A stretch of 64,000 nucleotides of DNA from the NCBI RefSeq assembly GCF_041886205.1, contig NZ_CP169029.1. One strand, written 5' to 3'. How positions within the stretch are numbered: the stretch's first letter is position 1; each line of letters starts with the position of its first letter. This DNA comes from Escherichia coli. Lineage in GTDB: Bacteria > Pseudomonadota > Gammaproteobacteria > Enterobacterales > Enterobacteriaceae. The notes under the pieces were generated by a model that saw only the letters and a program-made list of their open reading frames with translations, had not been told where the DNA came from and did not search any database. A program made the translations under genes and the position numbers. Of the stretch, positions 5,661 through 27,067 are shown piece by piece.

Positions 5661-5718
5661 AACCAAATCGTCACAATAATCCGCCACGATGGAGCCACTT
5701 TTTTAGGGAGGCTGCATC

Positions 5719-6507: not shown

Positions 6508-6531
6508 CATCCCCATCATTGAGGAAAACGA

Positions 6532-7548: not shown

Positions 7549-7552
7549 ATCG

Positions 7553-7645
7553 TAGGTCGGATAAGACGCCCCGGCGTCGCATCCGACAATGTGCAGGCGT
7601 TGATGCCGGATGCGGTGCAAGCACCTTATCCGGCCTACAGACCGG
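7553..7645. repeat. REP/BIME element
   Basis: GTAGGTCGGATAAGACGC...GCATCCGACA and GCCGGATGCGG...CTTATCCGGCCTAC palindromes between phnD and phnE. Confidence 0.85.
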
Positions 7646-7653
7646 AGCCAAAC

Positions 7654-8433
7654 ATGCAAACCATCACCATCGCCCCACCCAAGCGCAGCTGGTTCTCGCT
7701 TCTGAGCTGGGCCGTTGTTCTCGCCGTGCTGGTCGTCTCGTGGCAGGGCGCGGAAATGGCCCCGCTCACGCTGATTAAAGACGGCGGCAACATGGCAACC
7801 TTCGCTGCCGACTTCTTCCCGCCCGATTTCAGCCAGTGGCAGGATTACCTCACCGAAATGGCCGTCACGCTGCAAATCGCCGTCTGGGGCACCGCGCTGG
7901 CGGTGGTTCTCTCCATCCCCTTTGGCCTGATGAGCGCCGAAAACCTGGTGCCGTGGTGGGTTTACCAGCCCGTTCGCCGCCTGATGGACGCCTGCCGCGC
8001 CATTAACGAAATGGTCTTCGCCATGCTGTTCGTGGTCGCCGTCGGTCTCGGACCGTTCGCTGGCGTGCTGGCGCTATTTATCCACACCACCGGCGTGCTC
8101 TCCAAGCTGCTTTCCGAAGCGGTAGAAGCAATTGAACCTGGCCCGGTGGAAGGCATTCGCGCCACCGGTGCCAACAAGCTCGAAGAGATCCTCTACGGCG
8201 TGCTGCCACAGGTGATGCCACTGCTGATCTCCTACTCCCTCTATCGCTTCGAATCCAACGTCCGCTCGGCGACCGTCGTCGGCATGGTCGGCGCAGGCGG
8301 GATCGGCGTCACCCTGTGGGAAGCGATTCGCGGTTTCCAGTTCCAACAAACCTGCGCCCTGATGGTGCTTATCATCGTCACGGTCAGCCTGCTGGATTTC
8401 CTCTCTCAACGGTTGCGTAAGCACTTTATCTGA
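7654..8433 (+). CDS. phnE: Phosphonate ABC transporter permease (intact frame, 259 aa)
   Basis: Start taken at [10 protein letters not shown], downstream of the REP. Multi-pass hydrophobic protein with a single uninterrupted reading frame. Confidence 0.85.
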
Positions 8434-8453
8434 TAAGCGAGGCATTGATATCT

Positions 8454-9179
8454 ATGCACTTGTCTACACATCCGACCAGCTACCCAACACGCTATCAAGA
8501 GATAGCCGCAAAACTTGAGCAGGAGCTTCGTCAACACTACCGCTGCGGCGACTATCTTCCCGCCGAGCAGCAACTGGCAGCGCGCTTTGAGGTGAATCGC
8601 CACACCCTGCGCCGCGCCATCGACCAACTGGTGGAAAAAGGCTGGGTACAGCGCCGTCAGGGCGTCGGCGTGCTGGTGCTGATGCGCCCGTTCGATTACC
8701 CGCTCAACGCCCAGGCGCGTTTTAGCCAGAATCTGCTGGATCAGGGCAGCCATCCCACCAGCGAAAAACTGCTTTCGGTATTGCGCCCCGCGTCCGGCCA
8801 CGTCGCTGACGCACTGGGGATTACCGAGGGGGAGAACGTCATCCACCTGCGCACCCTGCGTCGTGTCAACGGCGTCGCGCTCTGTTTAATCGACCACTAC
8901 TTCGCGGACCTCACCCTCTGGCCGACGCTGCAACGCTTCGACAGCGGCTCGCTGCACGATTTTCTGCGCGAGCAAACCGGAATTGCGCTGCGCCGCAGCC
9001 AGACGCGGATCAGCGCCCGCCGCGCCCAGGCCAAAGAGTGCCAGCGTCTTGAAATCCCGAATATGTCGCCGCTGCTGTGCGTGCGCACCCTTAACCACCG
9101 TGACGGTGAAAGCAGCCCGGCGGAGTACTCCGTCAGCCTGACGCGCGCCGACATGATTGAATTCACTATGGAGCACTGA
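8454..9179 (+). CDS. phnF: GntR-family transcriptional regulator PhnF
   Basis: N-terminal HTH region (YLPAEQQLAARFEVNRHTLRRAIDQL) plus UTRA-like C-terminus; start could be 8445 or 8454. Confidence 0.85.
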   Translation: MHLSTHPTSYPTRYQEIAAKLEQELRQHYRCGDYLPAEQQLAARFEVNRHTLRRAIDQLVEKGWVQRRQGVGVLVLMRPFDYPLNAQARFSQNLLDQGSHPTSEKLLSVLRPASGHVADALGITEGENVIHLRTLRRVNGVALCLIDHYFADLTLWPTLQRFDSGSLHDFLREQTGIALRRSQTRISARRAQAKECQRLEIPNMSPLLCVRTLNHRDGESSPAEYSVSLTRADMIEFTMEH

Positions 9180-9632
9180 ATGCACGCAGATACCGCGACC
9201 CGCCAGCACTGGATGTCCGTGCTGGCGCACAGCCAACCGGCTGAACTGGCAGCACGCCTGAACGCGCTAAACATCACCGCCGACTATGAGGTGATCCGCG
9301 CCGCTGAAACTGGCCTGGTACAGATTCAGGCGCGGATGGGCGGCACCGGCGAACGTTTTTTTGCCGGCGACGCCACGCTGACCCGCGCCGCCGTGCGCCT
9401 GACTGACGGCACGCTCGGCTACAGCTGGGTGCAGGGGCGTGATAAACAGCACGCCGAACGCTGCGCGCTGATTGACGCGCTGATGCAGCAATCTCGCCAC
9501 TTTCAAAACTTATCAGAAACCCTTATTGCCCCGCTGGACGCTGACCGTATGGCACGCATTGCCGCACGCCAGGCCGAAGTGAACGCCAGCCGGGTCGACT
9601 TCTTTACGATGGTTCGCGGAGACAACGCATGA
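9180..9632 (+). CDS. phnG: C-P lyase core complex subunit PhnG
   Basis: 150 aa; TGA/ATG overlap with phnF; operon position. Confidence 0.9.
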
Positions 9633-10213
9633 CCCTGGAAACCGCTTTTATGCTTCCCGTGCAGGATGCCCAGCACAGTTTTCGTCGCCTGTTAAAGGCC
9701 ATGAGCGAGCCGGGCGTGATTGTCGCCCTGCATCAGCTCAAACGCGGCTGGCAACCGCTGAATATCGCCACCACCAGCGTGCTGCTGACGCTGGCCGATA
9801 ACGACACGCCGGTGTGGCTTTCTACCCCATTAAATAACGATATCGTCAACCAGAGCCTGCGTTTTCATACCAACGCGCCGCTGGTCAGCCAGCCGGAACA
9901 GGCGACCTTCGCGGTGACGGATGAGGCGATTTCCAGCGAACAGCTCAACGCCCTTTCCACCGGCACCGCCGTTGCGCCGGAAGCGGGTGCGACGCTGATT
10001 TTACAGGTCGCCAGCCTGAGCGGCGGACGCATGTTGCGCCTTACTGGTGCGGGTATTGCCGAAGAACGAATGATCGCTCCGCAGCTGCCGGAGTGCATTC
10101 TGCACGAACTCACCGAGCGCCCGCATCCGTTCCCGCTCGGCATCGACCTGATCCTGACCTGTGGCGAGCGCCTGCTGGCTATTCCGCGAACCACTCATGT
10201 GGAGGTGTGCTGA
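9629..10213 (+). CDS. phnH: C-P lyase core complex subunit PhnH
   Basis: 194 aa; 4-nt overlap with phnG. Confidence 0.9.
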
Positions 10214-11277
10214 TGTACGTTGCCGTGAAAGGGGGCGAGAAGGCGATCGACGCCGCCCACGCCCTGCAAGAGAGCCGACGCCGAGGCGATACCGATTTGC
10301 CCGAACTGAGCGTCGCCCAGATTGAACAGCAGCTTAACCTCGCGGTAGATCGCGTGATGACCGAAGGCGGCATTGCCGACCGCGAACTGGCGGCGCTGGC
10401 GCTGAAACAGGCCAGCGGCGATAACGTTGAAGCGATTTTCCTGCTGCGCGCCTACCGCACCACGTTGGCGAAGCTGGCGGTAAGCGAGCCGCTCGACACC
10501 ACCGGGATGCGTCTCGAACGCCGTATCTCCGCCGTTTATAAAGACATTCCCGGCGGCCAGCTGCTTGGCCCAACCTACGACTACACCCATCGCCTGCTCG
10601 ATTTTACCCTGCTGGCAAACGGCGAAGCGCCGACGCTGACCACCGCCGACAGCGAACAGCAGCCGTCGCCGCACGTTTTCAGCCTGCTGGCGCGTCAGGG
10701 GCTGGCGAAGTTTGAAGAGGATAGCGGCGCACAGCCGGATGACATCACCCGCACGCCGCCGGTTTACCCCTGCTCACGCTCCTCCCGTTTGCAGCAGTTG
10801 ATGCGCGGCGACGAAGGCTATTTGCTGGCGCTGGCCTACTCCACCCAACGCGGTTACGGGCGCAATCACCCGTTCGCAGGCGAGATCCGCAGCGGCTATA
10901 TCGACGTGTCGATTGTGCCGGAAGAGCTGGGATTTGCGGTGAACGTCGGCGAACTGCTGATGACTGAGTGTGAAATGGTTAACGGTTTTATCGACCCGCC
11001 GGGTGAGCCGCCGCACTTCACGCGCGGCTACGGGCTGGTGTTCGGCATGAGCGAGCGCAAAGCGATGGCGATGGCGCTGGTCGACCGCGCTCTGCAAGCC
11101 CCGGAGTACGGCGAGCACGCGACAGGCCCGGCGCAGGATGAAGAGTTCGTGCTGGCACATGCCGACAACGTCGAAGCCGCAGGCTTTGTCTCACACCTCA
11201 AACTCCCCCACTACGTCGATTTCCAGGCCGAACTGGAGCTACTCAAACGTCTGCAACAGGAGCAGAACCATGGCTAA
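10213..11277 (+). CDS. phnI: C-P lyase core complex subunit PhnI (354 aa)
   Basis: Start taken at [16 protein letters not shown], overlapping the phnH stop; the tracked ORF 10093-11277 is a 5' over-extension. Confidence 0.85.
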   Translation: MYVAVKGGEKAIDAAHALQESRRRGDTDLPELSVAQIEQQLNLAVDRVMTEGGIADRELAALALKQASGDNVEAIFLLRAYRTTLAKLAVSEPLDTTGMRLERRISAVYKDIPGGQLLGPTYDYTHRLLDFTLLANGEAPTLTTADSEQQPSPHVFSLLARQGLAKFEEDSGAQPDDITRTPPVYPCSRSSRLQQLMRGDEGYLLALAYSTQRGYGRNHPFAGEIRSGYIDVSIVPEELGFAVNVGELLMTECEMVNGFIDPPGEPPHFTRGYGLVFGMSERKAMAMALVDRALQAPEYGEHATGPAQDEEFVLAHADNVEAAGFVSHLKLPHYVDFQAELELLKRLQQEQNHG

Positions 11278-12115
11278 TCTGAGCGGCTACAACTTTGCCT
11301 ACCTCGACGAGCAGACCAAACGCATGATCCGCCGCGCCATCTTAAAAGCGGTGGCGATCCCCGGTTATCAGGTGCCGTTTGGCGGGCGCGAGATGCCGAT
11401 GCCGTACGGCTGGGGAACCGGCGGCATTCAGCTTACCGCCAGCGTGATTGGCGAAAGCGACGTGCTGAAGGTGATTGACCAGGGCGCGGATGACACCACC
11501 AACGCCGTGTCGATTCGCAACTTCTTCAAGCGCGTGACCGGGGTAAACACCACGGAACGTACGGACGATGCGACGGTTATCCAGACGCGTCACCGCATCC
11601 CCGAAACGCCGCTGACCGAAGATCAGATAATTATCTTCCAGGTGCCAATCCCCGAGCCGCTGCGCTTTATCGAGCCGCGCGAAACGGAAACCCGCACCAT
11701 GCACGCGCTGGAAGAGTACGGCGTGATGCAGGTGAAACTGTATGAAGATATCGCCCGCTTCGGTCATATCGCCACCACCTACGCCTATCCGGTGAAGGTA
11801 AATGGGCGCTACGTGATGGACCCGTCGCCGATCCCGAAATTCGATAACCCAAAAATGGACATGATGCCCGCCCTGCAACTGTTCGGCGCGGGGCGCGAGA
11901 AGCGCATCTATGCGGTGCCGCCGTTTACCCGCGTGGAAAGTCTCGATTTCGACGATCACCCGTTCACCGTTCAGCAGTGGGATGAGCCATGCGCCATCTG
12001 CGGATCGACCCACAGCTATCTTGATGAAGTGGTGCTGGATGACGCCGGAAACCGCATGTTTGTCTGCTCCGATACCGATTATTGCCGCCAACAGAGCGAG
12101 GCAAAAAACCAATGA
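11270..12115 (+). CDS. phnJ: C-P lyase PhnJ (radical SAM-dependent C-P bond cleavage subunit)
   Basis: Start at MANLSGYNFAYLDEQTKRMIRRAILKAVAIPGYQVPF; C-terminal CxxCxxxxxC cysteine cluster (CAICGSTHSYLDEV). Confidence 0.85.
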   Translation: MANLSGYNFAYLDEQTKRMIRRAILKAVAIPGYQVPFGGREMPMPYGWGTGGIQLTASVIGESDVLKVIDQGADDTTNAVSIRNFFKRVTGVNTTERTDDATVIQTRHRIPETPLTEDQIIIFQVPIPEPLRFIEPRETETRTMHALEEYGVMQVKLYEDIARFGHIATTYAYPVKVNGRYVMDPSPIPKFDNPKMDMMPALQLFGAGREKRIYAVPPFTRVESLDFDDHPFTVQQWDEPCAICGSTHSYLDEVVLDDAGNRMFVCSDTDYCRQQSEAKNQ

Positions 12116-12870
12116 ATCAACCGTTACTTTCGGTCAATAACCTGACCCACCTTTACGCGCCGGGCAAAGGCTTTAGCGATGTCTCTTTTGATTTATGGCC
12201 GGGGGAAGTGCTGGGCATTGTCGGGGAATCCGGCTCCGGGAAGACCACGCTGCTGAAGTCGATCTCCGCGCGCCTGACGCCGCAGCAGGGGGAAATTCAC
12301 TACGAGAACCGTTCGCTGTATGCAATGAGCGAGGCCGACCGCCGTCGCCTGCTGCGTACCGAATGGGGCGTGGTGCATCAGCATCCACTCGACGGCCTGC
12401 GCCGCCAGGTGTCGGCAGGCGGCAATATCGGCGAGCGGCTGATGGCGACCGGGGCACGTCATTACGGCGATATTCGTGCCACCGCGCAGAAGTGGCTGGA
12501 AGAGGTGGAGATTCCCGCCAACCGGATCGACGACCTGCCGACCACCTTTTCCGGCGGTATGCAGCAGCGTTTGCAGATTGCCCGCAACCTGGTGACGCAT
12601 CCGAAGCTGGTGTTTATGGATGAACCGACCGGCGGGCTGGATGTGTCGGTGCAGGCCCGCCTGCTCGACCTGCTGCGCGGCCTGGTGGTGGAGCTGAACC
12701 TCGCGGTGGTGATTGTCACCCATGATTTAGGCGTCGCCCGCCTGCTGGCGGACCGTTTGCTGGTGATGAAGCAGGGGCAAGTGGTGGAGAGTGGGTTAAC
12801 CGACCGCGTGCTCGACGACCCGCATCATCCGTATACACAGCTGCTGGTGTCATCGGTTTTGCAGAATTGA
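12112..12870 (+). CDS. phnK: ABC-type ATPase PhnK (C-P lyase accessory)
   Basis: Walker [10 protein letters not shown], signature FSGGMQQR, Walker B VFMDEPT. Confidence 0.9.
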
Positions 12871-12871
12871 G

Positions 12872-12962
<91 letters not shown>

Positions 12963-12980
12963 CGAACCACGAGGCGAAAA

Positions 12981-13661
12981 ATGATTAACGTACAAAACGT
13001 CAGTAAAACCTTCATCCTGCACCAGCAAAACGGCGTGCGCCTGCCCGTCCTCAATCGCGCCTCGCTCACCGTCAACGCGGGCGAATGCGTGGTGCTCCAC
13101 GGCCATTCCGGCAGCGGCAAATCAACTCTGCTACGCTCGCTGTACGCCAACTATCTACCCGACGAAGGTCAAATCCAGATCAAACACGGTGACGAGTGGG
13201 TAGACCTGGTCACCGCGCCAGCGCGCAAAGTGGTGGAAATCCGCAAAACCACCGTCGGCTGGGTGAGCCAGTTTCTGCGCGTCATCCCGCGTATCTCAGC
13301 ACTGGAAGTGGTGATGCAGCCGCTGCTCGATACCGGCGTTCCGCGTGAAGCCTGCGCCGCTAAAGCCGCGCGTCTTCTCACCCGCCTGAACGTGCCGGAA
13401 CGCCTGTGGCACCTGGCACCATCGACATTTTCCGGTGGCGAACAGCAGCGCGTCAACATCGCCCGCGGCTTTATCGTCGACTACCCCATTCTGCTGCTTG
13501 ACGAACCTACCGCCTCGCTGGACGCCAAAAACAGCGCCGCGGTGGTGGAACTGATTCGCGAAGCCAAAACCCGTGGCGCAGCCATCGTAGGCATCTTCCA
13601 TGACGAAGCTGTACGTAATGACGTCGCCGACCGCCTGCACCCAATGGGAGCCTCTTCATGA
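12981..13661 (+). CDS. phnL: ABC-type ATPase PhnL (226 aa)
   Basis: Start taken at [11 protein letters not shown], downstream of the REP; Walker [10 protein letters not shown], signature FSGGEQQR, Walker B LLLDEPT. Confidence 0.85.
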
Positions 13662-14794
13662 TTATCAATAACGTTAAGCTGGTGCTGGAAAACGAGGTGG
13701 TAAGCGGTTCGCTGGAGGTGCAGAACGGCGAAATCCGCGCCTTTGCCGAAAGCCAGAGCCGCCTGCCGGAGGCGATGGACGGCGAAGGCGGCTGGCTGCT
13801 GCCGGGGCTGATTGAGCTGCATACCGATAATCTGGATAAATTCTTCACCCCGCGCCCGAAAGTTGACTGGCCTGCCCACTCGGCGATGAGCAGCCACGAC
13901 GCGCTGATGGTGGCGAGCGGCATCACCACCGTACTGGATGCCGTGGCAATTGGCGACGTGCGCGACGGCGGCGATCGGCTGGAGAATCTGGAGAAGATGA
14001 TCAACGCCATCGAAGAGACGCAGAAACGCGGCGTCAACCGCGCCGAGCACCGTCTGCATCTGCGCTGCGAACTGCCGCATCACACCACGCTGCCGCTGTT
14101 TGAAAAACTGGTGCAGCGCGAGCCGGTGACGCTGGTGTCGCTGATGGACCACTCGCCGGGCCAGCGCCAGTTCGCCAACCGCGAGAAGTATCGCGAATAT
14201 TATCAGGGCAAATACTCCCTCACTGATGCGCAGATGCAGCAGTACGAAGAAGAGCAACTGGCGCTCGCCGCACGCTGGTCGCAGCCGAATCGCGAATCCA
14301 TCGCCGCCCTGTGCCGCGCGCGAAAAATTGCGCTTGCCAGCCACGATGACGCCACCCACGCCCACGTTGCTGAATCTCACCAGCTTGGCAGCGTGATCGC
14401 CGAATTTCCCACCACGTTCGAAGCGGCGGAAGCCTCGCGCAAGCATGGCATGAACGTGCTGATGGGCGCGCCGAATATTGTGCGCGGCGGCTCGCACTCC
14501 GGCAACGTGGCGGCCAGTGAACTGGCGCAGCTTGGCCTGCTGGATATCCTCTCTTCCGACTACTACCCCGCCAGCCTGCTCGATGCGGCATTTCGCGTCG
14601 CCGATGACGAGAGCAACCGCTTTACGCTGCCGCAGGCGGTGAAGCTGGTGACTAAAAATCCAGCGCAGGCGCTTAATCTCCAGGATCGCGGGGTGATTGG
14701 CGAGGGCAAACGCGCCGACCTGGTGCTGGCGCATCGCAAGGACAATCATATTCATATCGACCACGTCTGGCGTCAGGGTAAAAGGGTGTTCTGA
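13658..14794 (+). CDS. phnM: PhnM, amidohydrolase-family C-P lyase pathway enzyme
   Basis: 378 aa; metal-dependent hydrolase-like HTD motif ([10 protein letters not shown]); 4-nt overlap with phnL. Confidence 0.9.
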
Positions 14795-15351
14795 TGATGG
14801 GAAAACTGATTTGGTTAATGGGGCCGTCCGGCTCCGGGAAAGACAGCCTGCTGGCGGAACTCCGCCTGCGGGAACAAACTCAGTTACTGGTGGCGCATCG
14901 CTACATCACGCGCGATGCCAGCGCCGGAAGTGAAAACCATATCGCCCTGAGCGAGCAGGAGTTTTTTACCCGCGCGGGGCAAAATCTGTTGGCCTTAAGC
15001 TGGCACGCTAACGGTCTGTATTATGGCGTCGGCGTCGAGATTGATCTCTGGCTGCACGCCGGATTCGACGTGCTGGTCAACGGCTCACGCGCCCATCTGC
15101 CGCAGGCGCGGGCGCGCTATCAATCGGCGCTGCTGCCCGTCTGTTTACAGGTTTCGCCGGAGATCCTCCGCCAGCGCCTGGAAAACCGTGGCCGTGAAAA
15201 CGCCAGTGAAATTAACGCCCGCCTGGCGCGCGCCGCCCGCTATACTCCACAGGATTGCCATACGCTCAACAATGACGGCAGCCTGCGCCAGTCGGTCGAC
15301 ACGCTGCTGACGCTGATCCATCAGAAGGAGAAACACCATGCCTGCTTGTGA
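14794..15351 (+). CDS. phnN: Ribose 1,5-bisphosphate phosphokinase PhnN
   Basis: 185 aa; P-loop GPSGSGKDS; operon position. Confidence 0.9.
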
Positions 15352-15772
15352 GCTTCGCCCGGCCACGCAGTACGACACCGACGCGGTTTACGCGCTGATT
15401 TGTGAGCTAAAACAGGCGGAGTTTGACCACCACGCGTTTCGCGTGGGTTTTAACGCCAATCTGCGCGACCCAAACATGCGCTACCATCTGGCGCTGCTTG
15501 ATGGCGAAGTTGTCGGCATGATCGGCCTGCATTTGCAGTTTCATCTGCATCATGTCAACTGGATCGGCGAAATTCAGGAGTTGGTGGTAATGCCGCAGGC
15601 GCGCGGTCTGAACGTCGGCAGTAAGTTACTGGCGTGGGCAGAAGAAGAAGCCCGCCAGGCCGGGGCCGAAATGACCGAACTTTCGACCAACGTGAAGCGC
15701 CACGACGCGCACCGTTTCTATCTGCGCGAAGGCTACGAGCAGAGCCACTTCCGCTTCACCAAGGCGCTGTAA
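15338..15772 (+). CDS. phnO: Aminoalkylphosphonate N-acetyltransferase PhnO (GNAT)
   Basis: 144 aa GNAT-like protein overlapping the phnN 3' end. Confidence 0.9.
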
Positions 15773-15773
15773 C

Positions 15774-16532
15774 ATGAGCCTGACCCTCACGCTCACCGGC
15801 ACCGGCGGCGCACAGGGCGTTCCGGCATGGGGCTGCGAGTGTGCGGCCTGCGCCAGAGCGCGGCGCTCGCCGCAGTATCGCCGCCAACCGTGCAGCGGCG
15901 TAGTGAAGTTTAACGACGCAATCACCCTGATCGACGCCGGGCTGCACGATCTCGCCGATCGTTGGTCGCCCGGATCGTTCCAGCAGTTTTTGCTGACGCA
16001 TTATCATATGGATCACGTCCAGGGGCTGTTTCCGCTGCGCTGGGGCGTTGGCGATCCGATCCCGGTTTACGGCCCGCCGGATGAACAGGGCTGCGACGAT
16101 CTGTTTAAACATCCGGGCCTGCTTGATTTCAGCCACACGGTGGAACCGTTTGTGGTGTTTGATTTGCAGGGGTTACAGGTCACGCCCCTGCCGCTCAACC
16201 ACTCAAAACTGACCTTCGGTTATCTGCTGGAAACGGCACACAGCCGGGTGGCGTGGCTGTCTGACACCGCAGGCTTGCCGGAAAAAACGCTGAAATTTTT
16301 ACGCAATAATCAGCCGCAGGTAATGGTGATGGATTGCAGTCACCCGCCGCGCGCGGATGCACCGCGTAATCACTGTGATTTAAATACCGTGCTTGCGCTG
16401 AATCAGGTTATCCGCTCGCCACGGGTGATTCTGACCCATATCAGCCACCAGTTTGATGCGTGGCTGATGGAAAACGCACTACCGTCAGGGTTTGAGGTGG
16501 GGTTTGATGGGATGGAGATTGGGGTGGCGTGA
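15774..16532 (+). CDS. phnP: Phosphodiesterase PhnP (metallo-beta-lactamase fold)
   Basis: 252 aa with HxHxDH motif ([10 protein letters not shown]). Confidence 0.9.
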
Positions 16533-16552
16533 TGAGAGGGAATGTGCGCGCT

Positions 16553-16660
16553 GGCCCCCTCACCCTAACCCTCTCCCCAGAGGGGCGAGGGGACCGATTG
16601 TGCTCGATATTGAATATTGCGCTCGTTTTCTCCCTCTCCCCATTGGGGTGAGGGGCGATG
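16553..16660. repeat. Two C-rich/G-rich imperfect palindromes in the convergent phnP-yjdP gap (possible bidirectional terminator or small repeat-family element)
   Basis: CCCTCACCCTAACCCTCTCCCCAGAGGGGCGAGGGGAC at ~16557-16594 and CTCCCTCTCCCCATTGGGGTGAGGGGCG at ~16630-16657; each can fold as a GC-rich hairpin. Confidence 0.5.
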
Positions 16661-16678
16661 CCTGCTCCATACCCAACC

Positions 16679-17008
16679 TCATCGCCCATACTCATCTTCC
16701 ATTCTCCGCTCTTCATCCTCCAGTTGCCGACGCTCCTGATCAAGCTGGCGCTGGCGATCGTCCAGCTGCCTGCGGCGATCTTCAAACTGGCGGCGGCGGT
16801 CGTCATATTGTCTGCGCCGATCGTCGCTCACTTCACGCTGCCAGCCGTCGTCGCGCGAATCTTCATAGTCTCGCCCACGGTCAGGGTTATAAGCGTCATT
16901 AATCGCCTGCTGAATATTGCCAATGGTGTCGTCGATAATATCGGCCTGGGCCGGAACGGTGGACAGCGTGAGCAGGGTGAATAAAAGAAATAGCGGAAAG
17001 CGTTTCAT
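16679..17008 (-). CDS. yjdP: Small secreted protein YjdP (109 aa)
   Basis: Signal peptide MKRFPLFLLFTLLTLSTVPAQA followed by a repetitive D/R/Q/E-rich region (RRQYDDRRRQFEDRRRQLDDRQRQLDQERRQLEDEERR). Confidence 0.8.
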   Translation of the reverse strand: MKRFPLFLLFTLLTLSTVPAQADIIDDTIGNIQQAINDAYNPDRGRDYEDSRDDGWQREVSDDRRRQYDDRRRQFEDRRRQLDDRQRQLDQERRQLEDEERRMEDEYGR

Positions 17009-17076
17009 TAGCCAACCTCAAAAAGAAACTCTATCCACATTAATCATTACTCATCCATGCAAGTAGTGGATGAATC

Positions 17077-17394
17077 TCAATTTCTCCGCTGCTCTATTGC
17101 CGTAATCGCCTCCACGCGTTGTTGATGACGACCGCCTTCGTACTGTGCGCCCAGCCACGCATCCACAATCATTTTTGCCAGTTCGAGGCCAACCACTCGT
17201 GAACCAAAAGCCAGTGCAACTTCACTGGCGTAATGCGGATAATCAGTGCGCTCTGACGACCTGGTTTCTTTATCAATCCCCTCACTCATTGACCATGAAT
17301 AAAAGGCTGGCACAGCAACACAGAATCCTGCGGTGCCAGCGACATGACCGCCCATTGCTCCGGTACGTTTTTTAATAAAAAACACCGGTTGCAT
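17077..17394 (-). pseudogene. rpiB: Remnant of ribose-5-phosphate isomerase B (rpiB): C-terminal half retained, internal in-frame deletion, non-RpiB N-terminus
   Basis: The 105-aa ORF contains SSERTDYPHYASEVALA fused directly to FGSRVVGLELAKMIVDAWLGAQYEGGRHQQRVEAITAIEQRRN. Both match remembered RpiB but with ~58 intervening residues missing, and the first ~36 residues do not resemble RpiB. Confidence 0.6.
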
Positions 17395-17634
17395 TGATTA
17401 ATTGTGCTCAGTATTTGCCGAAGTACAATATATATAATAAATATATAAAACACCTCATATTATTTACAGAGATAATAAATTCGCGTACTTTTCCCTCTTC
17501 AGCACAAATGCCTAATAAAATGGCGCGTTCAGCTCACACTTCCACTTATTAAAGTCGCAATTTCCCAATTATGATAACGCCAGCTTTAAATGACGTATTT
17601 TGCATGGATTACATATTTACGACATAAATGATAA

Positions 17635-19632
17635 ATGGAGATTTATATGAATAACTCTCGGTTATTCCGTTTGAGCAGGATTGTTATTGCGTTAACTGCC
17701 GCCAGCGGCATGATGGTAAATACCGCTAACGCGAAAGAGGAAGCGAAAGCCGCCACTCAATATACCCAACAGGTTAATCAGAATTACGCCAAATCATTAC
17801 CGTTTAGCGATCGTCAGGATTTTGACGATGCCCAGCGTGGATTTATCGCCCCGCTGCTGGATGAAGGTATTCTGCGTGATGCGAACGGTAAAGTTTACTA
17901 CCGCGCGGACGATTACAAATTTGATATTAATGCCGCAGCGCCGGAAACCGTAAACCCCAGCCTGTGGCGTCAGTCGCAAATCAACGGTATTTCTGGCCTG
18001 TTCAAAGTCACCGATAAAATGTATCAGGTGCGCGGCCAGGATATCTCTAACATTACGTTCGTTGAGGGCGAGAAAGGCATTATTGTTATTGACCCACTGG
18101 TGACGCCACCTGCCGCAAAAGCCGCACTTGACCTTTACTTCCAGCATCGTCCGCATAAACCGATTGTTGCCGTTATCTACACTCACAGCCACACTGACCA
18201 CTATGGTGGCGTGAAAGGTATTATCTCTGAAGCCGATGTTAAATCCGGCAAAGTTCAGGTGATTGCCCCTGCAGGCTTTATGGACGAAGCCATCAGCGAA
18301 AACGTGCTGGCGGGTAACATCATGAGCCGCCGTGCGCTCTACTCTTACGGTCTGTTACTGCCGCACAACGCGCAAGGCAACGTGGGTAATGGCCTTGGCG
18401 TGACGCTGGCAACGGGCGACCCGAGCATTATTGCACCGACTAAAACTATCGTCAGAACTGGCGAGAAGATGATTATTGACGGCCTGGAGTTTGACTTCCT
18501 GATGACCCCAGGTAGCGAAGCGCCAGCCGAAATGCACTTCTATATTCCGGCCCTGAAAGCCCTGTGTACCGCCGAGAACGCCACGCATACCCTACACAAC
18601 TTCTACACTCTGCGCGGCGCGAAAACCCGCGATACCAGCAAGTGGACCGAGTACCTGAACGAAACGCTGGATATGTGGGGTAACGACGCGGAAGTCCTGT
18701 TTATGCCGCACACCTGGCCGGTCTGGGGCAATAAGCATATCAATGATTATATTGGTAAATATCGCGATACTATCAAGTACATTCACGACCAGACCCTGCA
18801 CCTGGCGAACCAGGGCTACACCATGAATGAAATCAGCGACATGATTAAGCTGCCGCCTGCACTTGCCAATAACTGGGCCAGCCGTGGCTATTACGGTTCT
18901 GTCAGCCACAACGCCCGCGCGGTGTATAACTTCTATCTTGGCTATTACGACGGTAACCCGGCTAACCTGCATCCGTATGGTCAGGTGGAGATGGGTAAAC
19001 GTTACGTGCAGGCGCTGGGCGGTTCTGCCCGTGTCATCAACCTAGCGCAAGAAGCGAACAAGCAAGGTGATTACCGCTGGTCGGCAGAACTGCTGAAACA
19101 GGTGATTGCCGCCAACCCGGGTGACCAGGTCGCGAAGAATCTGCAAGCGAATAACTTTGAACAGCTGGGCTATCAGGCCGAATCCGCCACCTGGCGCGGT
19201 TTCTACCTGACCGGCGCGAAAGAGCTGCGCGAAGGGGTGCATAAGTTCAGCCACGGCACCACCGGTTCCCCGGACACCATTCGCGGGATGTCGGTCGAAA
19301 TGCTGTTCGACTTTATGTCCGTTCGCCTCGATAGCGCGAAAGCCGCGGGTAAAAATATCAGCCTGAACTTCAATATGAGCAATGGCGATAACCTCAACCT
19401 GACGCTGAACGATAGCGTGCTTAACTACCGTAAAACACTGCAATCCCAAGCTGACGCCTCTTTCTACATCAGCCGTGAAGATCTGCACGCCGTGCTAACC
19501 GGGCAAGCCAAAATGGCGGATCTGGTAAAAGCGAAGAAAGCCAAAATTATTGGCAATGGCGCGAAACTGGAAGAAATTATCGCCTGTCTGGATAATTTCG
19601 ATTTGTGGGTGAATATCGTAACCCCAAATTAA
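17635..19632 (+). CDS. yjcS: YjcS, alkyl/aryl-sulfatase-like metallo-beta-lactamase-fold hydrolase with signal peptide
   Basis: 665-aa ORF; HSHTDHYGG metal-binding motif; N-terminal signal peptide. True start may be the internal MNNSRLF at 17647. Confidence 0.85.
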
Positions 19633-19640
19633 TGTCACTC

Positions 19641-19680
19641 GCTTTTGGGGGCGCTGAAGCCCCCAAAAGCATTTATTTTA
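19641..19680 (+). terminator. Rho-independent terminator after yjcS
   Basis: GCTTTTGGGGG-loop-CCCCCAAAAGC hairpin followed by a T-rich tract. Confidence 0.7.
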
Positions 19681-19840
19681 AAAATATATACAGCCAATTA
19701 ATAAATAAAATATATAAGTTATGAATGCGGTGGCTGAATAAAGCTATTTTTATTCATCGAGAAAATAGCCATACTGACGCCTTCAATGGATATTGATATT
19801 CACTACAGATATTGTTCGCAGCAGACAGGATGTATTTAAT

Positions 19841-20116
19841 ATGCCAACAGTTCTCTCTCGCATGGCGATGCAACTCAAAAAAACAGCCTGGATAATTCCC
19901 GTCTTCATGGTTTCGGGATGCTCATTATCTCCGGCAATCCCGGTGATCGGTGCTTATTATCCCAGCTGGTTTTTCTGCGCCATTGCCAGCCTTATTTTGA
20001 TGCTCATCACGAGGCGAGTTATTCAGCGGGCAAATATCAATCTGGCATTTGTCGGAATTATTTATACCGCCCTTTTTGCTCTCTACGCCATGCTGTTCTG
20101 GCTGGCATTTTTCTAA
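19841..20116 (+). CDS. ytcA: Small lipoprotein YtcA (91 aa)
   Basis: Start at MPTVLSRMAMQLKKTAWIIPVFMVSGCSLSP (lipobox VSGC); immediately upstream of mdtN. Confidence 0.75.
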   Translation: MPTVLSRMAMQLKKTAWIIPVFMVSGCSLSPAIPVIGAYYPSWFFCAIASLILMLITRRVIQRANINLAFVGIIYTALFALYAMLFWLAFF

Positions 20117-20134
20117 TCTATTTGAGACGCGCTC

Positions 20135-21166
20135 ATGGAAAGTACGCCGAAAAAAGCTCCTCGCAGTAAATTCCCTGCTCTGTTAGTGGTTGCGTTGGCG
20201 CTGGTTGCCCTTGTTTTCGTTATCTGGCGCGTAGACAGTGCGCCATCAACTAATGACGCTTACGCGTCAGCAGATACCATTGATGTGGTGCCGGAAGTCA
20301 GCGGTCGCATTGTAGAACTGGCGGTCACCGACAACCAGGCGGTGAAACAGGGCGATTTGCTGTTCCGCATCGACCCGCGCCCGTACGAAGCCAACCTGGC
20401 GAAAGCCGAAGCCTCCCTCGCGGCGCTGGATAAGCAAATTATGCTCACCCAGCGTAGCGTTGACGCCCAACAGTTTGGTGCCGACTCGGTTAATGCCACG
20501 GTAGAAAAAGCCCGTGCCGCCGCTAAACAGGCCACAGATACATTACGCCGCACCGAGCCATTACTGAAAGAAGGTTTTGTCTCAGCGGAAGACGTTGACC
20601 GTGCGAGGACCGCGCAGCGCGCTGCAGAAGCCGATCTTAATGCCGTATTGTTACAGGCGCAGTCAGCCGCCAGCGCCGTCAGCGGCGTCGATGCGCTGGT
20701 GGCGCAACGTGCGGCGGTCGAAGCGGATATTGCCCTGACCAAACTTCATCTGGAAATGGCGACCGTACGCGCGCCGTTTGATGGCCGGATCATTTCCCTC
20801 AAAACCTCCGTCGGGCAATTTGCTTCTGCCATGCGCCCTATTTTTACCCTAATCGACACTCGTCACTGGTACGTGATCGCCAACTTCCGCGAAACCGATC
20901 TGAAAAATATTCGCTCAGGTACACCCGCAACGATTCGCCTGATGAGTGACAGCGGCAAAACCTTCGAGGGTAAAGTGGATTCGATTGGCTACGGCGTGCT
21001 ACCGGATGATGGCGGCCTGGTGCTGGGCGGCCTGCCGAAAGTTTCTCGTTCTATTAACTGGGTCCGCGTTGCCCAGCGTTTTCCGGTCAAAATCATGGTC
21101 AATAAACCTGACCCGGAAATGTTCCGCATCGGCGCTTCGGCAGTCGCTAATCTTGAGCCGCAATAA
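20135..21166 (+). CDS. mdtN: Multidrug efflux membrane-fusion protein MdtN (EmrA-like)
   Basis: 343 aa; N-terminal membrane anchor plus coiled-coil/HlyD-like region; precedes mdtO. Confidence 0.85.
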   Translation: MESTPKKAPRSKFPALLVVALALVALVFVIWRVDSAPSTNDAYASADTIDVVPEVSGRIVELAVTDNQAVKQGDLLFRIDPRPYEANLAKAEASLAALDKQIMLTQRSVDAQQFGADSVNATVEKARAAAKQATDTLRRTEPLLKEGFVSAEDVDRARTAQRAAEADLNAVLLQAQSAASAVSGVDALVAQRAAVEADIALTKLHLEMATVRAPFDGRIISLKTSVGQFASAMRPIFTLIDTRHWYVIANFRETDLKNIRSGTPATIRLMSDSGKTFEGKVDSIGYGVLPDDGGLVLGGLPKVSRSINWVRVAQRFPVKIMVNKPDPEMFRIGASAVANLEPQ

Positions 21167-23217
21167 TGAGCGCGCTCAACTCCCTGCCATTACCGGTGGT
21201 CAGGCTGCTGGCGTTCTTTCATGAAGAGTTAAGCGAGCGGCGACCAGGTCGCGTGCCGCAGACCGTGCAACTCTGGGTAGGCTGCCTGCTGGTGATTCTG
21301 ATCTCGATGACTTTTGAGATCCCTTTTGTGGCGTTATCGCTGGCAGTGCTGTTTTACGGTATTCAGTCGAACGCGTTTTACACCAAATTTGTCGCGATCT
21401 TGTTTGTGGTTGCCACGGTGCTGGAGATCGGCAGCCTGTTTTTGATCTACAAATGGTCATACGGCGAACCGTTGATCCGATTGATCATCGCCGGGCCGAT
21501 CCTGATGGGCTGCATGTTTTTGATGCGCACCCATCGCTTGGGGCTGGTCTTTTTCGCCGTCGCCATTGTCGCTATTTACGGGCAAACCTTCCCCGCCATG
21601 CTCGACTATCCGGAAGTGGTCGTGCGCTTAACGCTGTGGTGTATCGTTGTTGGCCTCTATCCAACCTTGCTGATGACGTTAATCGGCGTGCTGTGGTTTC
21701 CCAGTCGTGCCATTTCGCAAATGCATCAGGCGCTTAATGATCGGCTTGATGATGCCATTAGTCACCTGACAGACAGCCTCGCACCGCTACCCGAAACGCG
21801 GATTGAAAGAGAGGCGCTGGCGCTGCAAAAACTCAATGTCTTTTGCCTCGCGGACGATGCCAACTGGCGAACTCAGAGCGCATGGTGGCAAAGCTGTGTG
21901 GCAACGGTAACCTACATTTACTCGACGCTGAATCGCTACGATCCCACCTCTTTTGCGGATTCTCAGGCAATTATTGAATTCCGACAAAAATTAGCCTCAG
22001 AAATCAACAAGCTGCAGCATGCCGTTGCTGAAGGTCAGTGCTGGCAAAGCGACTGGCGGATCAGTGAAAGTGAAGCGATGGCGGCACGGGAATGTAACCT
22101 GGAGAATATCTGCCAGACGTTGTTACAACTGGGTCAGATGGACCCGAATACGCCGCCAACGCCCGCAGCCAAACCGCCATCAATGGCCGCCGATGCTTTT
22201 ACCAATCCAGACTATATGCGCTACGCGGTAAAAACGCTGCTCGCCTGTTTGATCTGTTACACCTTTTACAGCGGCGTGGACTGGGAAGGCATTCACACCT
22301 GTATGCTGACATGCGTGATCGTCGCTAACCCAAATGTCGGTTCGTCGTACCAGAAGATGGTGCTGCGTTTTGGCGGGGCCTTTTGCGGCGCGATTCTGGC
22401 GCTGTTATTCACGCTACTGGTCATGCCTTGGCTGGACAATATTGTCGAATTGCTGTTTGTGCTGGCACCGATTTTCCTGTTGGGCGCATGGATTGCCACC
22501 AGCTCTGAACGCTCTTCTTATATCGGCACACAGATGGTGGTCACCTTCGCGCTCGCCACGCTCGAAAACGTTTTTGGCCCAGTGTACGACCTGGTGGAAA
22601 TTCGCGATCGCGCCCTGGGTATCATCATTGGTACCGTGGTGTCCGCGGTGATTTACACCTTTGTCTGGCCTGAAAGTGAAGCGCGCACACTGCCGCAAAA
22701 ACTGGCTGGCACGCTGGGTATGTTAAGTAAAGTAATGCGGATCCCACGCCAGCAGGAAGTCACGGCTCTGCGCACTTATCTGCAAATTCGTATCGGTCTG
22801 CATGCGGCGTTTAATGCCTGTGAAGAGATGTGCCAACGCGTGGCGCTGGAGCGTCAACTGGACAGCGAAGAACGCGCCTTACTGATTGAACGTTCGCAAA
22901 CGGTTATTCGTCAGGGCCGCGATATTCTTCACGCCTGGGATGCCACCTGGAACTCGGCGCAGGCGCTGGATAACGCACTACAGCCGGACAGAGCAGGTCA
23001 GTTTGCCGACGCCCTGGAGAAATACGCTGCCGGTCTGGCAACCGCACTCAGCCGTTCTCCTCAAATAACGCTTGAAGAGACACCCGCCTCGCAGGCCATC
23101 CTGCCCACCTTATTAAAACAGGAGCAACACGTCTGCCAGCTTTTCGCCCGCTTGCCAGACTGGACAGCCCCGGCATTAACGCCCGCCACGGAACAGGCAC
23201 AAGGAGCCACGCAATGA
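21166..23217 (+). CDS. mdtO: Multidrug efflux inner-membrane protein MdtO
   Basis: 683-aa polytopic membrane protein; start overlaps the mdtN stop. Confidence 0.85.
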   Translation: MSALNSLPLPVVRLLAFFHEELSERRPGRVPQTVQLWVGCLLVILISMTFEIPFVALSLAVLFYGIQSNAFYTKFVAILFVVATVLEIGSLFLIYKWSYGEPLIRLIIAGPILMGCMFLMRTHRLGLVFFAVAIVAIYGQTFPAMLDYPEVVVRLTLWCIVVGLYPTLLMTLIGVLWFPSRAISQMHQALNDRLDDAISHLTDSLAPLPETRIEREALALQKLNVFCLADDANWRTQSAWWQSCVATVTYIYSTLNRYDPTSFADSQAIIEFRQKLASEINKLQHAVAEGQCWQSDWRISESEAMAARECNLENICQTLLQLGQMDPNTPPTPAAKPPSMAADAFTNPDYMRYAVKTLLACLICYTFYSGVDWEGIHTCMLTCVIVANPNVGSSYQKMVLRFGGAFCGAILALLFTLLVMPWLDNIVELLFVLAPIFLLGAWIATSSERSSYIGTQMVVTFALATLENVFGPVYDLVEIRDRALGIIIGTVVSAVIYTFVWPESEARTLPQKLAGTLGMLSKVMRIPRQQEVTALRTYLQIRIGLHAAFNACEEMCQRVALERQLDSEERALLIERSQTVIRQGRDILHAWDATWNSAQALDNALQPDRAGQFADALEKYAAGLATALSRSPQITLEETPASQAILPTLLKQEQHVCQLFARLPDWTAPALTPATEQAQGATQ

Positions 23218-24680
23218 TCAATCGTCAACTTTCACGTCTGCTGTTGTGCAGCATTCTCGGCAGCACGACGCTGATTTCCGGCTGTGCCTTGGTACGTAAG
23301 GATTCTGCACCTCATCAACAGCTCAAACCGGAACAAATCAAACTGGCCGACGATATTCATCTTGCCAGCTCCGGCTGGCCGCAGGCGCAGTGGTGGAAAC
23401 AACTCAATGACCCGCAGCTGGATGCGCTGATCCAACGGACGCTAAGTGGTTCACACACCCTCGCCGAAGCGAAACTGCGGGAAGAAAAAGCGCAGTCCCA
23501 GGCCGATTTGTTAGATGCCGGTTCACAATTACAGGTCGCAGCGTTAGGGATGCTCAACCGCCAACGCGTCTCGGCGAACGGCTTTTTAAGCCCTTATGCG
23601 ATGGATGCGCCAGCACTGGGTATGGACGGGCCGTACTATACGGAAGCCACAGTAGGTTTGTTTGCCGGACTGGATCTTGATTTGTGGGGTGTGCATCGCT
23701 CAGCGGTTGCCGCCGCCATTGGCGCGCATAATGCCGCGCTGGCAGAAACCGCAGCAGTAGAGCTATCGCTGACCACGGGCGTAGCGCAGCTTTATTACAG
23801 TATGCAGGCCAGCTATCAGATGCTCGATCTGTTAGAACAAACTCGCGATGTGATTGATTACGCGGTGAAAGCGCACCAAAGTAAAGTGGCGCACGGTCTG
23901 GAAGCGCAAGTGCCTTTCCACGGCGCGCGGGCACAGATTCTGGCGGTCGATAAACAAATTGCTGCCGTTAAAGGGCAAATCACCGAAACGCGAGAATCTC
24001 TGCGTGCATTGATTGGCGCGGGAGCCAGCGATATGCCGGAGATCAAACCGGTGGCATTACCGCAAGTACAGACCGGCATTCCGGCGACGCTCTCTTATGA
24101 GTTGCTCGCCAGACGCCCGGATCTGCAAGCCATGCGCTGGTATGTTCAGGCGTCATTAGATCAGGTGGATTCCGCGCGGGCGTTGTTCTACCCGAGCTTT
24201 GATATCAAAGCGTTTTTCGGCCTTGATGCCATCCACCTGGATACCTTATTCAAAAAAACCAGTCGCCAGTTCAACTTCATCCCGGGTCTGAAATTGCCGC
24301 TGTTTGACGGTGGACGGTTGAATGCCAATCTCGAAGGCACTCGCGCCGCCAGCAACATGATGATTGAACGTTACAACCAGTCAGTACTGAACGCGGTGCG
24401 CGACGTTGCCGTCAACGGCACGCGTCTGCAAACGCTCAACGACGAGCGAGAGATGCAGGCTGAACGCGTGGAAGCAACGCGCTTCACCCAGCGCGCTGCC
24501 GAGGCCGCCTATCAGCGCGGCTTAACCAGCCGCTTACAGGCCACTGAAGCCCGGTTGCCAGTACTTGCCGAAGAGATGTCATTACTGATGCTGGACAGCC
24601 GCCGGGTGATCCAAAGCATTCAGTTGATGAAATCGCTGGGCGGCGGGTATCAGGCGGCTCCCGTCGTCGAGAAAAAATAA
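23214..24680 (+). CDS. mdtP: Outer-membrane efflux channel MdtP (TolC-family lipoprotein)
   Basis: 488 aa; lipobox LISGCA; 4-nt overlap with mdtO. Confidence 0.85.
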   Translation: MINRQLSRLLLCSILGSTTLISGCALVRKDSAPHQQLKPEQIKLADDIHLASSGWPQAQWWKQLNDPQLDALIQRTLSGSHTLAEAKLREEKAQSQADLLDAGSQLQVAALGMLNRQRVSANGFLSPYAMDAPALGMDGPYYTEATVGLFAGLDLDLWGVHRSAVAAAIGAHNAALAETAAVELSLTTGVAQLYYSMQASYQMLDLLEQTRDVIDYAVKAHQSKVAHGLEAQVPFHGARAQILAVDKQIAAVKGQITETRESLRALIGAGASDMPEIKPVALPQVQTGIPATLSYELLARRPDLQAMRWYVQASLDQVDSARALFYPSFDIKAFFGLDAIHLDTLFKKTSRQFNFIPGLKLPLFDGGRLNANLEGTRAASNMMIERYNQSVLNAVRDVAVNGTRLQTLNDEREMQAERVEATRFTQRAAEAAYQRGLTSRLQATEARLPVLAEEMSLLMLDSRRVIQSIQLMKSLGGGYQAAPVVEKK

Positions 24681-24877
24681 AATGTCTGCCGCGTGATGGC
24701 TGTCACGCGGTATTTCGTTTCGTCACGTCAAAACTGACGACAGCCTGTTTTTCGTCAGAGTTTTGAATAAATAGTGCCCGTAATATCAGGGAATGACCCC
24801 AAATAAAATGTGGCATAAAAGATGCATACTGTAGTCGAGAGCGCGTATGCGTGATTTGATTAACTGGAGCGAGACCG

Positions 24878-27025
24878 ATGAAAAAAGTCGTCACGGTTTG
24901 CCCCTATTGCGCATCAGGTTGCAAAATCAACCTGGTCGTCGATAACGGCAAAATCGTCCGGGCGGAGGCAGCGCAGGGGAAAACCAACCAGGGTACCCTG
25001 TGTCTGAAGGGTTATTATGGCTGGGATTTCATTAACGATACCCAGATCCTGACCCCGCGCCTGAAAACCCCCATGATCCGTCGCCAGCGTGGCGGCAAAC
25101 TCGAACCTGTTTCCTGGGATGAGGCACTGAATTACGTTGCCGAGCGCCTGAGCGCCATCAAAGAGAAGTACGGTCCGGATGCCATCCAGACGACCGGCTC
25201 CTCGCGTGGTACGGGTAACGAAACCAACTATGTAATGCAAAAATTTGCGCGCGCCGTTATTGGTACCAATAACGTTGACTGCTGCGCTCGTGTCTGACAC
25301 GGCCCATCGGTTGCAGGTCTGCACCAATCGGTCGGTAATGGCGCAATGAGCAATGCTATTAACGAAATTGATAATACCGATTTAGTGTTCGTTTTCGGGT
25401 ACAACCCGGCGGATTCCCACCCAATCGTAGCGAATCACGTAATTAACGCTAAACGTAACGGGGCGAAAATTATCGTCTGCGATCCGCGCAAAATTGAAAC
25501 CGCGCGCATTGCTGACATGCACATTGCACTGAAAAACGGCTCGAACATCGCGCTGTTGAATGCGATGGGCCATGTCATTATTGAAGAAAATTTGTACGAC
25601 AAAGCATTCGTCGCTTCCCGTACAGAAGGCTTTGAAGAGTATCGTAAAATCGTTGAAGGCTACACGCCGGAGTCGGTTGAAGATATCACCGGCGTCAGCG
25701 CCAGTGAGATTCGTCAGGCGGCACGGATGTATGCCCAGGCGAAAAGCGCCGCCATCCTGTGGGGCATGGGTGTAACCCAGTTCTACCAGGGCGTGGAAAC
25801 CGTGCGTTCTCTGACCAGCCTCGCGATGCTGACCGGTAACCTCGGTAAGCCACATGCGGGTGTTAACCCGGTTCGTGGTCAGAACAACGTACAGGGTGCC
25901 TGCGATATGGGCGCGCTGCCGGATACGTATCCGGGATACCAGTACGTGAAAGATCCGGCTAACCGCGAGAAATTCGCCAAAGCCTGGGGCGTGGAAAGCC
26001 TGCCAGCGCATACCGGCTATCGCATCAGCGAGCTACCGCACCGCGCAGCGCATGGCGAAGTGCGTGCCGCGTACATTATGGGCGAAGATCCGCTGCAAAC
26101 TGACGCGGAGCTGTCGGCAGTACGTAAAGCCTTTGAAGATCTGGAACTGGTTATCGTTCAGGACATCTTTATGACCAAAACCGCGTCGGCGGCGGATGTT
26201 ATTTTACCGTCAACGTCGTGGGGCGAGCATGAAGGCGTGTTTACTGCGGCTGACCGTGGCTTCCAGCGTTTCTTCAAGGCGGTTGAACCGAAATGGGATC
26301 TGAAAACGGACTGGCAAATCATCAGTGAAATCGCCACCCGTATGGGTTATCCGATGCACTACAACAACACCCAGGAGATCTGGGATGAGTTGCGTCATCT
26401 GTGCCCGGATTTCTACGGTGCGACTTACGAGAAAATGGGCGAACTGGGCTTCATTCAGTGGCCTTGCCGCGATACTTCAGATGCCGATCAGGGGACTTCT
26501 TATCTGTTTAAAGAGAAGTTTGATACCCCGAACGGTCTGGCGCAGTTCTTCACCTGCGACTGGGTAGCGCCAATCGACAAACTCACCGACGAGTACCCGA
26601 TGGTACTGTCAACGGTGCGTGAAGTTGGTCACTACTCTTGCCGTTCGATGACCGGTAACTGTGCGGCACTGGCGGCGCTGGCTGATGAACCTGGCTACGC
26701 ACAAATCAATACCGAAGACGCCAAACGTCTGGGTATTGAAGATGAGGCATTGGTTTGGGTGCACTCGCGTAAAGGCAAAATTATCACCCGTGCGCAGGTC
26801 AGCGATCGTCCGAACAAAGGGGCGATTTACATGACCTACCAGTGGTGGATTGGTGCCTGTAACGAGCTGGTTACCGAAAACTTAAGCCCGATTACGAAAA
26901 CGCCGGAGTACAAATACTGCGCCGTTCGCGTCGAGCCGATCGCCGATCAGCGCGCCGCCGAGCAGTACGTGATTGACGAGTACAACAAGTTGAAAACTCG
27001 CCTGCGCGAAGCGGCACTGGCGTAA
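24878..27025 (+). CDS. fdhF: Formate dehydrogenase H (selenocysteine-containing); in-frame UGA at 25295-25297 read as Sec
   Basis: The tracked ORFs 24878-25297 and 25346-27025 are in the same frame (offset 468 nt). The first ends ...CCARV-TGA, followed by HGPSVAGLHQSVGNGAMSNAINEI. N-terminal 4Fe-4S motif CPYCASGC and a molybdopterin oxidoreductase body. Confidence 0.9.
25298..25340 (+). promoter_or_regulatory. SECIS stem-loop directing selenocysteine insertion in fdhF
   Basis: CACGGCCCATCGGTTGCAGGTCTGCACCAATCGGTCGGTAATGGCG immediately 3' of the UGA; matches the fdhF SECIS as I remember it. Confidence 0.8.
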
Positions 27026-27039
27026 TACAGTCCTTTCTA

Positions 27040-27067
27040 CAGCCTCCTTTCGGAGGCTGTTTTTTTA
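27040..27067 (+). terminator. Rho-independent terminator after fdhF
   Basis: CAGCCTCC-TTTC-GGAGGCTG hairpin followed by TTTTTTT. Confidence 0.8.

Follow-up and report, generated by a model that had tools for sequence, protein, structure and literature searches.

Results

A single reading frame with an internal UGA

The window analysed here, a stretch of 64,000 nucleotides of Escherichia coli DNA, carries on its plus strand a single frame of 716 codons with just two stops, a TGA at codon 140 and the terminal TAA (Table 1). A mechanical ORF finder lists this frame as two plus-strand ORFs, one of 139 aa at 24878..25297 and the other of 559 aa at 25346..27025, each with an ATG start. Both lie in one frame, as their distances from 24878 are divisible by 3, and the 16 codons that separate the TGA from the second ATG (25298–25345) are open. 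The first-pass annotation had described two ORFs in one frame that are split by a UGA, and this proved exact: the 716-codon frame has one internal stop.

Table 1. Features at the fdhF locus, in window coordinates.
Feature	Position	Strand	Remarks
Sigma-54-type −24/−12 promoter-like element TGGCATAAAAGATGCA	24811..24826	+	51 nt upstream of the fdhF start codon
Shine–Dalgarno-like GGAG	24866..24869	+	8 nt before the ATG at 24878; read from sequence
fdhF CDS	24878..27025	+	715 aa + stop; formate dehydrogenase H, molybdopterin/[4Fe-4S] selenoprotein
fdhF-type SECIS, full extent (RF01988)	25290..25344	+	Outer helix 25290–25294/25340–25344, lower stem ~25297–25307/25327–25336, apical hairpin
UGA codon 140, selenocysteine codon	25295..25297	+	Next base C (UGA-C); aligned with X140 of the crystallised protein
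Apical 17-nt SelB-binding hairpin GGUUGCAGGUCUGCACC	25309..25325	+	Sequence and spacing read directly; SelB binding from the literature
Intrinsic terminator-like hairpin ACAGCCUCC-UUUC-GGAGGCUGU + U-run	27039..27067	+	14 nt past the stop codon

The translated frame was 100% identical over 715 residues to the PDB chains named 'formate dehydrogenase H' (1AA6, 1FDI, 1FDO, 2IV2, and 7Z0T), and the sole position that did not match was the non-standard residue X140 of these chains, which lies opposite the UGA. With Cys put in place of Sec at the UGA, the product also scored 1095.7 bits over residues 6–685 against NCBIfam TIGR01591 (formate dehydrogenase subunit alpha), for which the curated equivalog cutoff is 666.25. 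The N-terminal [4Fe-4S] cysteines C8, C11, C15, and C42 are all there, as are the active-site positions UGA140, H141, and R333. The gene had been named fdhF on first reading, and the identity to the solved structures together with the TIGR01591 score confirms that name. In the nearest genomes, RefSeq annotates one 2148-nt CDS, fdhF (WP_001300547.1), whose limits are exactly 24878–27025. The prediction that naive annotation would split the gene is therefore accurate for the mechanical ORF list, whereas RefSeq reports a single CDS.

Taken literally, the mechanical ORF list, in which the second ORF has its own ATG at 25346, would make fdhF either a pseudogene created by a nonsense mutation or two independently translated genes of 139 and 559 aa. 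However, the 16 codons that lead from the TGA to this ATG encode HGPSVAGLHQSVGNGA, which is identical to residues 141–156 of crystallised formate dehydrogenase H, and because these inter-ORF codons give residues of the solved structure, the two ORFs correspond to one polypeptide. In addition, we did not find a Shine–Dalgarno-like sequence ahead of the ATG at 25346, which argues against a separately translated second gene.

A SECIS element directly follows the UGA

The Rfam covariance model SECIS_2 (RF01988) matched the sequence around the UGA over its full length (positions 1–55 of 55, at 25290–25344) with a score of 87.1 bits, relative to a gathering score of 70, and an E-value of 1.8e-17 for the entire window. 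There was no other SECIS match in the 64 kb. The fdhF SECIS sequence equals the RF01988 consensus at every upper-case position. We also considered membership in SECIS_3 (RF01989) and rejected it, as the same spot reached only 35.8 bits with this model and the gathering score is 63. The stem-loop that had been noticed right after the UGA as matching the fdhF SECIS is thus recovered by a curated model, and a curated SECIS match in this position is a further argument against a pseudogene or two genes.

According to a review (PMC8659212), the fdhF SECIS comprises ~ 40 nt, and its upper 17-nt stem-loop (nucleotides 15–31, counted like the residues below from the U of the UGA) is located 11 nt from the UGA. 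The same review describes U17 as bulged and G23 and U24 as essential. The hairpin in the window fits this layout, in agreement with the expectation that its fold would compare well with that of the fdhF SECIS. It is in-frame and directly 3′ of the UGA, the spacer between the UGA and the apical hairpin is 11 nt long (25298–25308), the bulged U17 is found at 25311, and the GGUC loop (25316–25319) contains G23 at 25317 and U24 at 25318.

The minimum free energy (MFE) fold of 25295–25340 consisted of a stem formed by GGU, a bulged U, and GCA, with the loop GGUC and then the lower stem, at −14.9 kcal/mol. This energy was no better than that of shuffled sequence (z = −1.33, with 22 of 200 shuffles as stable or more stable; not significant), and we therefore dropped stability as evidence. 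The case that the element is more than a chance hairpin is instead made by the covariance-model score, the protein identity before and after the UGA, and the conservation and covariation across species described below.

Termination is weak at a UGA whose next base is C. Together with the unexceptional free energy of the hairpin, this could be taken to suggest that the UGA is decoded mainly by selenocysteine-independent read-through, in which a near-cognate Trp or Cys tRNA would read a leaky UGA-C and the hairpin would be a by-product of the amino-acid sequence. The identical protein, however, was crystallised with a non-standard residue 140.

Genomic setting and selenocysteine machinery

fdhF was found in 5419 of 5426 complete E. 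coli genomes, in which it is annotated as a single CDS. Many complete E. coli genomes matched the DNA at the locus (2.4 kb), including the stretch with the TGA, at 100% identity, which is difficult to reconcile with a nonsense mutation or with two genes. The neighbourhood is the usual E. coli one, with mdtN-O-P upstream and yjcO, gltP, and nrfA-G downstream. The genome nearest to the window was that of E. coli strain wlxctx60 (NZ_AP045833.1), to which BLAST aligned window positions 1–13999 and 14000–38999 at 100.0% identity (~ 1–2 mismatches each) and positions 39000–63515 at 99.9%.

Within the 64-kb window, we detected no tRNA and no sel gene. NZ_AP045833.1 contains selB (4279888–4281732), selA (4281729–4283120), and selD (2363238–2364281), none of them flagged as a pseudogene, and a tRNA-Sec gene (4350170–4350264) that ARAGORN classified as tRNA-SeC with the anticodon UCA. 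Among the 5426 complete E. coli genomes, selAB were present in 5425, selD in 5425, and selC in 5424. The first-pass annotation had proposed to confirm that selAB, selC, and selD are present in the genome. They were found in the nearest genome, which has all four, and in at least 5424 of the 5426 E. coli genomes; for the source genome itself, we infer with very high confidence from these near-identical and other E. coli genomes that the machinery is encoded. A complete Sec machinery core in E. coli is also a point against Sec-independent read-through.

Sequence signals were also observed on either side of the gene. The promoter-like element TGGCATAAAAGATGCA was the window's sole match to TGGCAYNNNNNWTGCW, although 0.45 matches are expected by chance per 64-kb window and the match alone is therefore weak. 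The dependence of fdhF on sigma-54 and FhlA is established, and together with the single consensus match it weakly suggests TGGCATAAAAGATGCA as a candidate promoter. Downstream of the gene, the terminator scan identified a strong terminator-like stem of 9 pairs, 6 of them G-C, with the tail TTTTTTATCC. The flanking signals would be consistent with a self-contained, monocistronic fdhF driven by FhlA and sigma-54.

Synonymous sites within the SECIS are constrained

For a first set of relatives (set 1), one genome per bacterial species was scanned for TGA-N11-GGTTGCAGGTCTGCACC. The exact 17-mer at 11-nt spacing was found in at least 120 stretches, and the titled matches among those listed were all from Enterobacterales (Citrobacter, Enterobacter, Salmonella, Klebsiella, Kluyvera, Serratia, Budvicia, Arsenophonus, and others). 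The TGA was required by the search pattern, both here and in the second set described below, and its presence in the matches is therefore not independent evidence of conservation. Among the set 1 matches listed, however, the frame was open on either side of a single TGA in 115 of the 116 usable copies (...VDCCARV*HGPSVAGL...), a pattern at odds with a pseudogene or with two genes. The crystallised single chain, the presence of fdhF in nearly all complete E. coli genomes (5419 of 5426), the open-frame TGA copies in Enterobacterales, and the SECIS match together exclude both of these readings, to which we assign a very low probability.

Set 1 is informative outside the apical hairpin only, as the hairpin itself was fixed by the bait. 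Four-fold sites within the SECIS were nearly frozen, with an entropy of 0 at 25303, 0.17 at 25330, 0.25 at 25333, and 0 at 25342, whereas neighbouring four-fold sites were saturated (1.47 at 25288, 1.43 at 25306, and 1.72 at 25345). The mean four-fold entropy was 0.45 in the SECIS (n = 8) versus 1.25 in the flanks (n = 42; one-sided Mann–Whitney p = 3e-4). The protein sequence cannot account for such low entropy at four-fold sites, which indicates that the RNA itself is under selection and contradicts the idea that the hairpin is a by-product of the encoded amino acids. In the lower stem as well as in the outer 5-bp helix (25290–25294/25340–25344), synonymous sites were under strong purifying selection across Enterobacterales. 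When pairs were counted over the 35 distinct sequences of set 1, 93% of cells were paired and there were no two-sided changes; shuffles of this set were uninformative because the bait had fixed the hairpin.

The apical stem covaries

A second set (set 2) was collected from metagenome contigs using the upstream coding motif GAYTGYTGYGCNCGNGTNTGACAYGGNCC (DCCARV-UGA-HGP), which left the hairpin free. It contained 117 usable copies with 38 distinct 55-mers, of which two with indels were set aside, leaving 36 rows. In these 36 distinct homologues, the GGUC loop, the top three pairs (GCA/UGC), and U25311 were all invariant. The pair 25309–25325 was present as GC in 26 rows, as UA in seven, and as CG in one, and was unpaired in two. 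For the pair 25312–25323, we observed UA in 27 rows, AU in eight, and CG in one, and no row was unpaired. The apical stem thus had 17 doubly changed cells over two pairs. None of 500 shuffles reached the observed covariation score, and covariation in slid controls was far below that observed. Some of the covarying changes in the apical stem alter the protein (HQ to LK or RA) while the pairing is kept, which would not be expected of a hairpin that merely follows from the amino-acid sequence.

Synonymous-site constraint and covariation thereby exclude Sec-independent read-through as the main route past the UGA, and the probability that we leave to it is very low. We conclude, with little short of certainty, that 24878–27025 is E. 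coli fdhF, one gene in which the UGA is recoded as selenocysteine by means of the downstream SECIS.

The same set bears on which U is bulged. In the register drawn by Rfam and by the MFE fold, U25311 pairs with A25323 and U25312 is bulged; this candidate was disfavoured, as 8 of the 36 rows were unpaired at that pair compared with 0 of 36 in the published register. Covariation in the aligned sequences therefore favours the published register, in which U25311 (U17) would be bulged and U25312 paired with A25323.

No two-sided compensatory changes were detected in the lower stem in either set, in which we observed only invariance and one-sided changes compatible with wobble pairing. Two pairs drawn by Rfam, 25297–25336 and 25306–25328, were often unpaired in relatives and probably do not reflect real constraints. 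The lower stem is thus supported indirectly, by the invariance, the wobble-compatible changes, and the depressed synonymous variation.

Discussion

fdhF is the founding example of bacterial selenocysteine recoding. The UGA and SECIS described here are already known and fully described, and nothing in them departs from the K-12 reference. The locus had been called a well-known recoding event in the first-pass annotation, and this was borne out: it is a textbook fdhF, the same as that of K-12 in protein and in SECIS. The value of the result is practical only, in that flagging the UGA/SECIS pair prevents misannotation. Gene callers and ORF scans that are blind to the pair split or pseudogenise fdhF, whereas the RefSeq pipeline copes and returns a single CDS.

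Formate dehydrogenase H is the subunit of the formate hydrogenlyase complex that oxidises formate. In the proposed mechanism of its synthesis, tRNA(Sec) would be charged with serine by SerRS, and SelA would then convert Ser-tRNA(Sec) to Sec-tRNA(Sec) with selenophosphate supplied by SelD. SelB-GTP would bind Sec-tRNA(Sec), with its anticodon UCA, and would also bind the SECIS at its apical loop and bulged U. As the ribosome arrives at the UGA, the tethered SelB complex would bring Sec to the A site in competition with RF2. The whole gene would in this way be translated into one polypeptide of 715 residues with Sec140 at the UGA (25295–25297), where Sec140 would be a ligand to the molybdenum of the bis-MGD cofactor. 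For the window, we infer SelB binding, Sec insertion, and catalysis from established work on the identical sequence in K-12. SelB binding and Sec insertion have been experimentally established for this exact sequence in K-12 (e.g. PMC4513850), and UGA–SECIS recoding amounted to 30–40% in vivo (Kotini et al, PMC4513850).

The strong constraint on synonymous sites also covers regions beyond the minimal hairpin, which is the one slightly non-textbook feature of the element. The upper hairpin and its spacing were reportedly sufficient in reporter studies. It is conceivable, although we consider it somewhat less probable than the opposite, that the lower stem and outer helix also play a part in vivo, such as in recoding efficiency, in the timing of hairpin unwinding, or in competition with RF2; it is the conservation of synonymous sites that suggests this. 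An in vivo role of the lower stem, if true, would add detail to a known system without making it a new one.

Compared with Rfam RF01988, the element is a full-length match above the gathering score, and the bulge register and two of the lower-stem pairs depart from the model in relatives. It is similar to RF01989 (SECIS_3) and to the SECIS elements of the other E. coli selenoprotein genes, fdnG and fdoG, in that the gene encodes a molybdopterin formate dehydrogenase and has a hairpin directly 3′ of its in-frame UGA, and the SelB-dependent principle is common to them; the window element nevertheless scores below the SECIS_3 gathering score and is not a member of that family. Neither fdnG nor fdoG is present in the window. 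Relative to fdhF of E. coli K-12 (b4079; PDB 1AA6/1FDO/2IV2), the protein is identical throughout its 715 residues, the UGA corresponds to residue 140, the neighbourhood is the same (mdtNOP upstream and yjcO-gltP-nrf downstream), and there is no functional difference. The strain background of the window differs from K-12, as its nearest genome is NZ_AP045833.1, and the prophage on the dusA side is a different one.

Natural variation of the fdhF hairpin and paired loci

The apical hairpin of the fdhF SECIS (25309-25325) varies among metagenome contigs that were collected by the coding motif upstream of the element, with the hairpin left free (L129-L248). Pairing was compensated in all three of the variants UGUAGCAGGUCUGCUCA, UGUAACAGGUCUGCUCA and CGUCGCAGGUCUGCGCG. 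In a further variant, GGUUGCAGGUCUGCAGC, the bases equivalent to pair 25310-25324 form a G-G mismatch, and a C-G pair may be gained one step lower. The GGUC loop and the bulged U were constant throughout these variants.

Among the matches listed in the species-genome pattern scan, several Enterobacterales species had two separate loci per genome with a TGA and an fdhF-type SECIS (L027/L028, L043/L044, L055/L056, L058/L059, L076/L077 and L085/L086). The two-locus genomes were those of Pluralibacter gergoviae, Cedecea neteri, Klebsiella oxytoca, Kluyvera genomosp. 3, Tenebrionibacter intestinalis and Enterobacter sp. JUb54. Each pair of loci represents two selenoprotein fdhF paralogues in one genome. 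One of the two Cedecea neteri copies, L043, loses its frame ~ 100 codons past the UGA.

Genomic surroundings of fdhF

TCGTCA/TGACGA motifs are repeated within 24687-24760 (for example at 24720-24745). They precede the sigma-54-like -24/-12 site by ~ 65-110 nt, a position that plausibly fits a candidate FhlA upstream activating sequence. Over the fdhF region, strain EcPF16 (NZ_CP054224.1) shows 100% identity to the window. The nrfE gene, which lies downstream of fdhF, is annotated as frameshifted in this strain (11924-13641 of L001, its fdhF-containing stretch) and is intact in NZ_AP045833.1. In the latter genome, the nearest to the window, a P4-like satellite island with genes for an integrase, psu, ogr/delta, sid and a primase-helicase lies directly after the tRNA-Sec gene selC; selC and the island together span 4350170-4360052 (15171-25053 of the selC locus L005). 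This arrangement is a classic case of selC serving as an integration site.

Phage genes at dusA and other elements

The integrase and the DinI-like gene near dusA, within window 60975-64000, are ~ 98% identical to those of the lambdoid phages mEp460 and SKA5. Similarity between the window and the otherwise near-identical NZ_AP045833.1 ends at window position 63515, beside these phage-like genes, which indicates that the source strain carries a prophage integrated at dusA whose interior is unlike that of NZ_AP045833.1.

Coordinate mapping to NZ_AP045833.1 places the match to sraL, an Hfq-binding sRNA, at the 3′ end of soxR. The four naRNA4 matches are extragenic palindromes of the REP/BIME type; two of them are in tandem, ~ 100 nt apart.

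Features located in the window
Feature	Position	Strand	Remark
mdtP stop	24680		
Terminator-like hairpin	24687-24712		Between mdtP stop and sigma-54-like element; terminator scan
naRNA4	4903-4979	+	Rfam RF02564
naRNA4	5003-5079	+	Rfam RF02564
naRNA4	7555-7635	-	Rfam RF02564
naRNA4	38306-38377	-	Rfam RF02564
sraL sRNA	45615-45755	+	Full-length RF01408 match, 153.3 bits
dusA	60975-62012	-	
Tyrosine integrase	62101-63198	+	Adjoins dusA
DinI-like gene	63260-63508	+	Near dusA, after integrase
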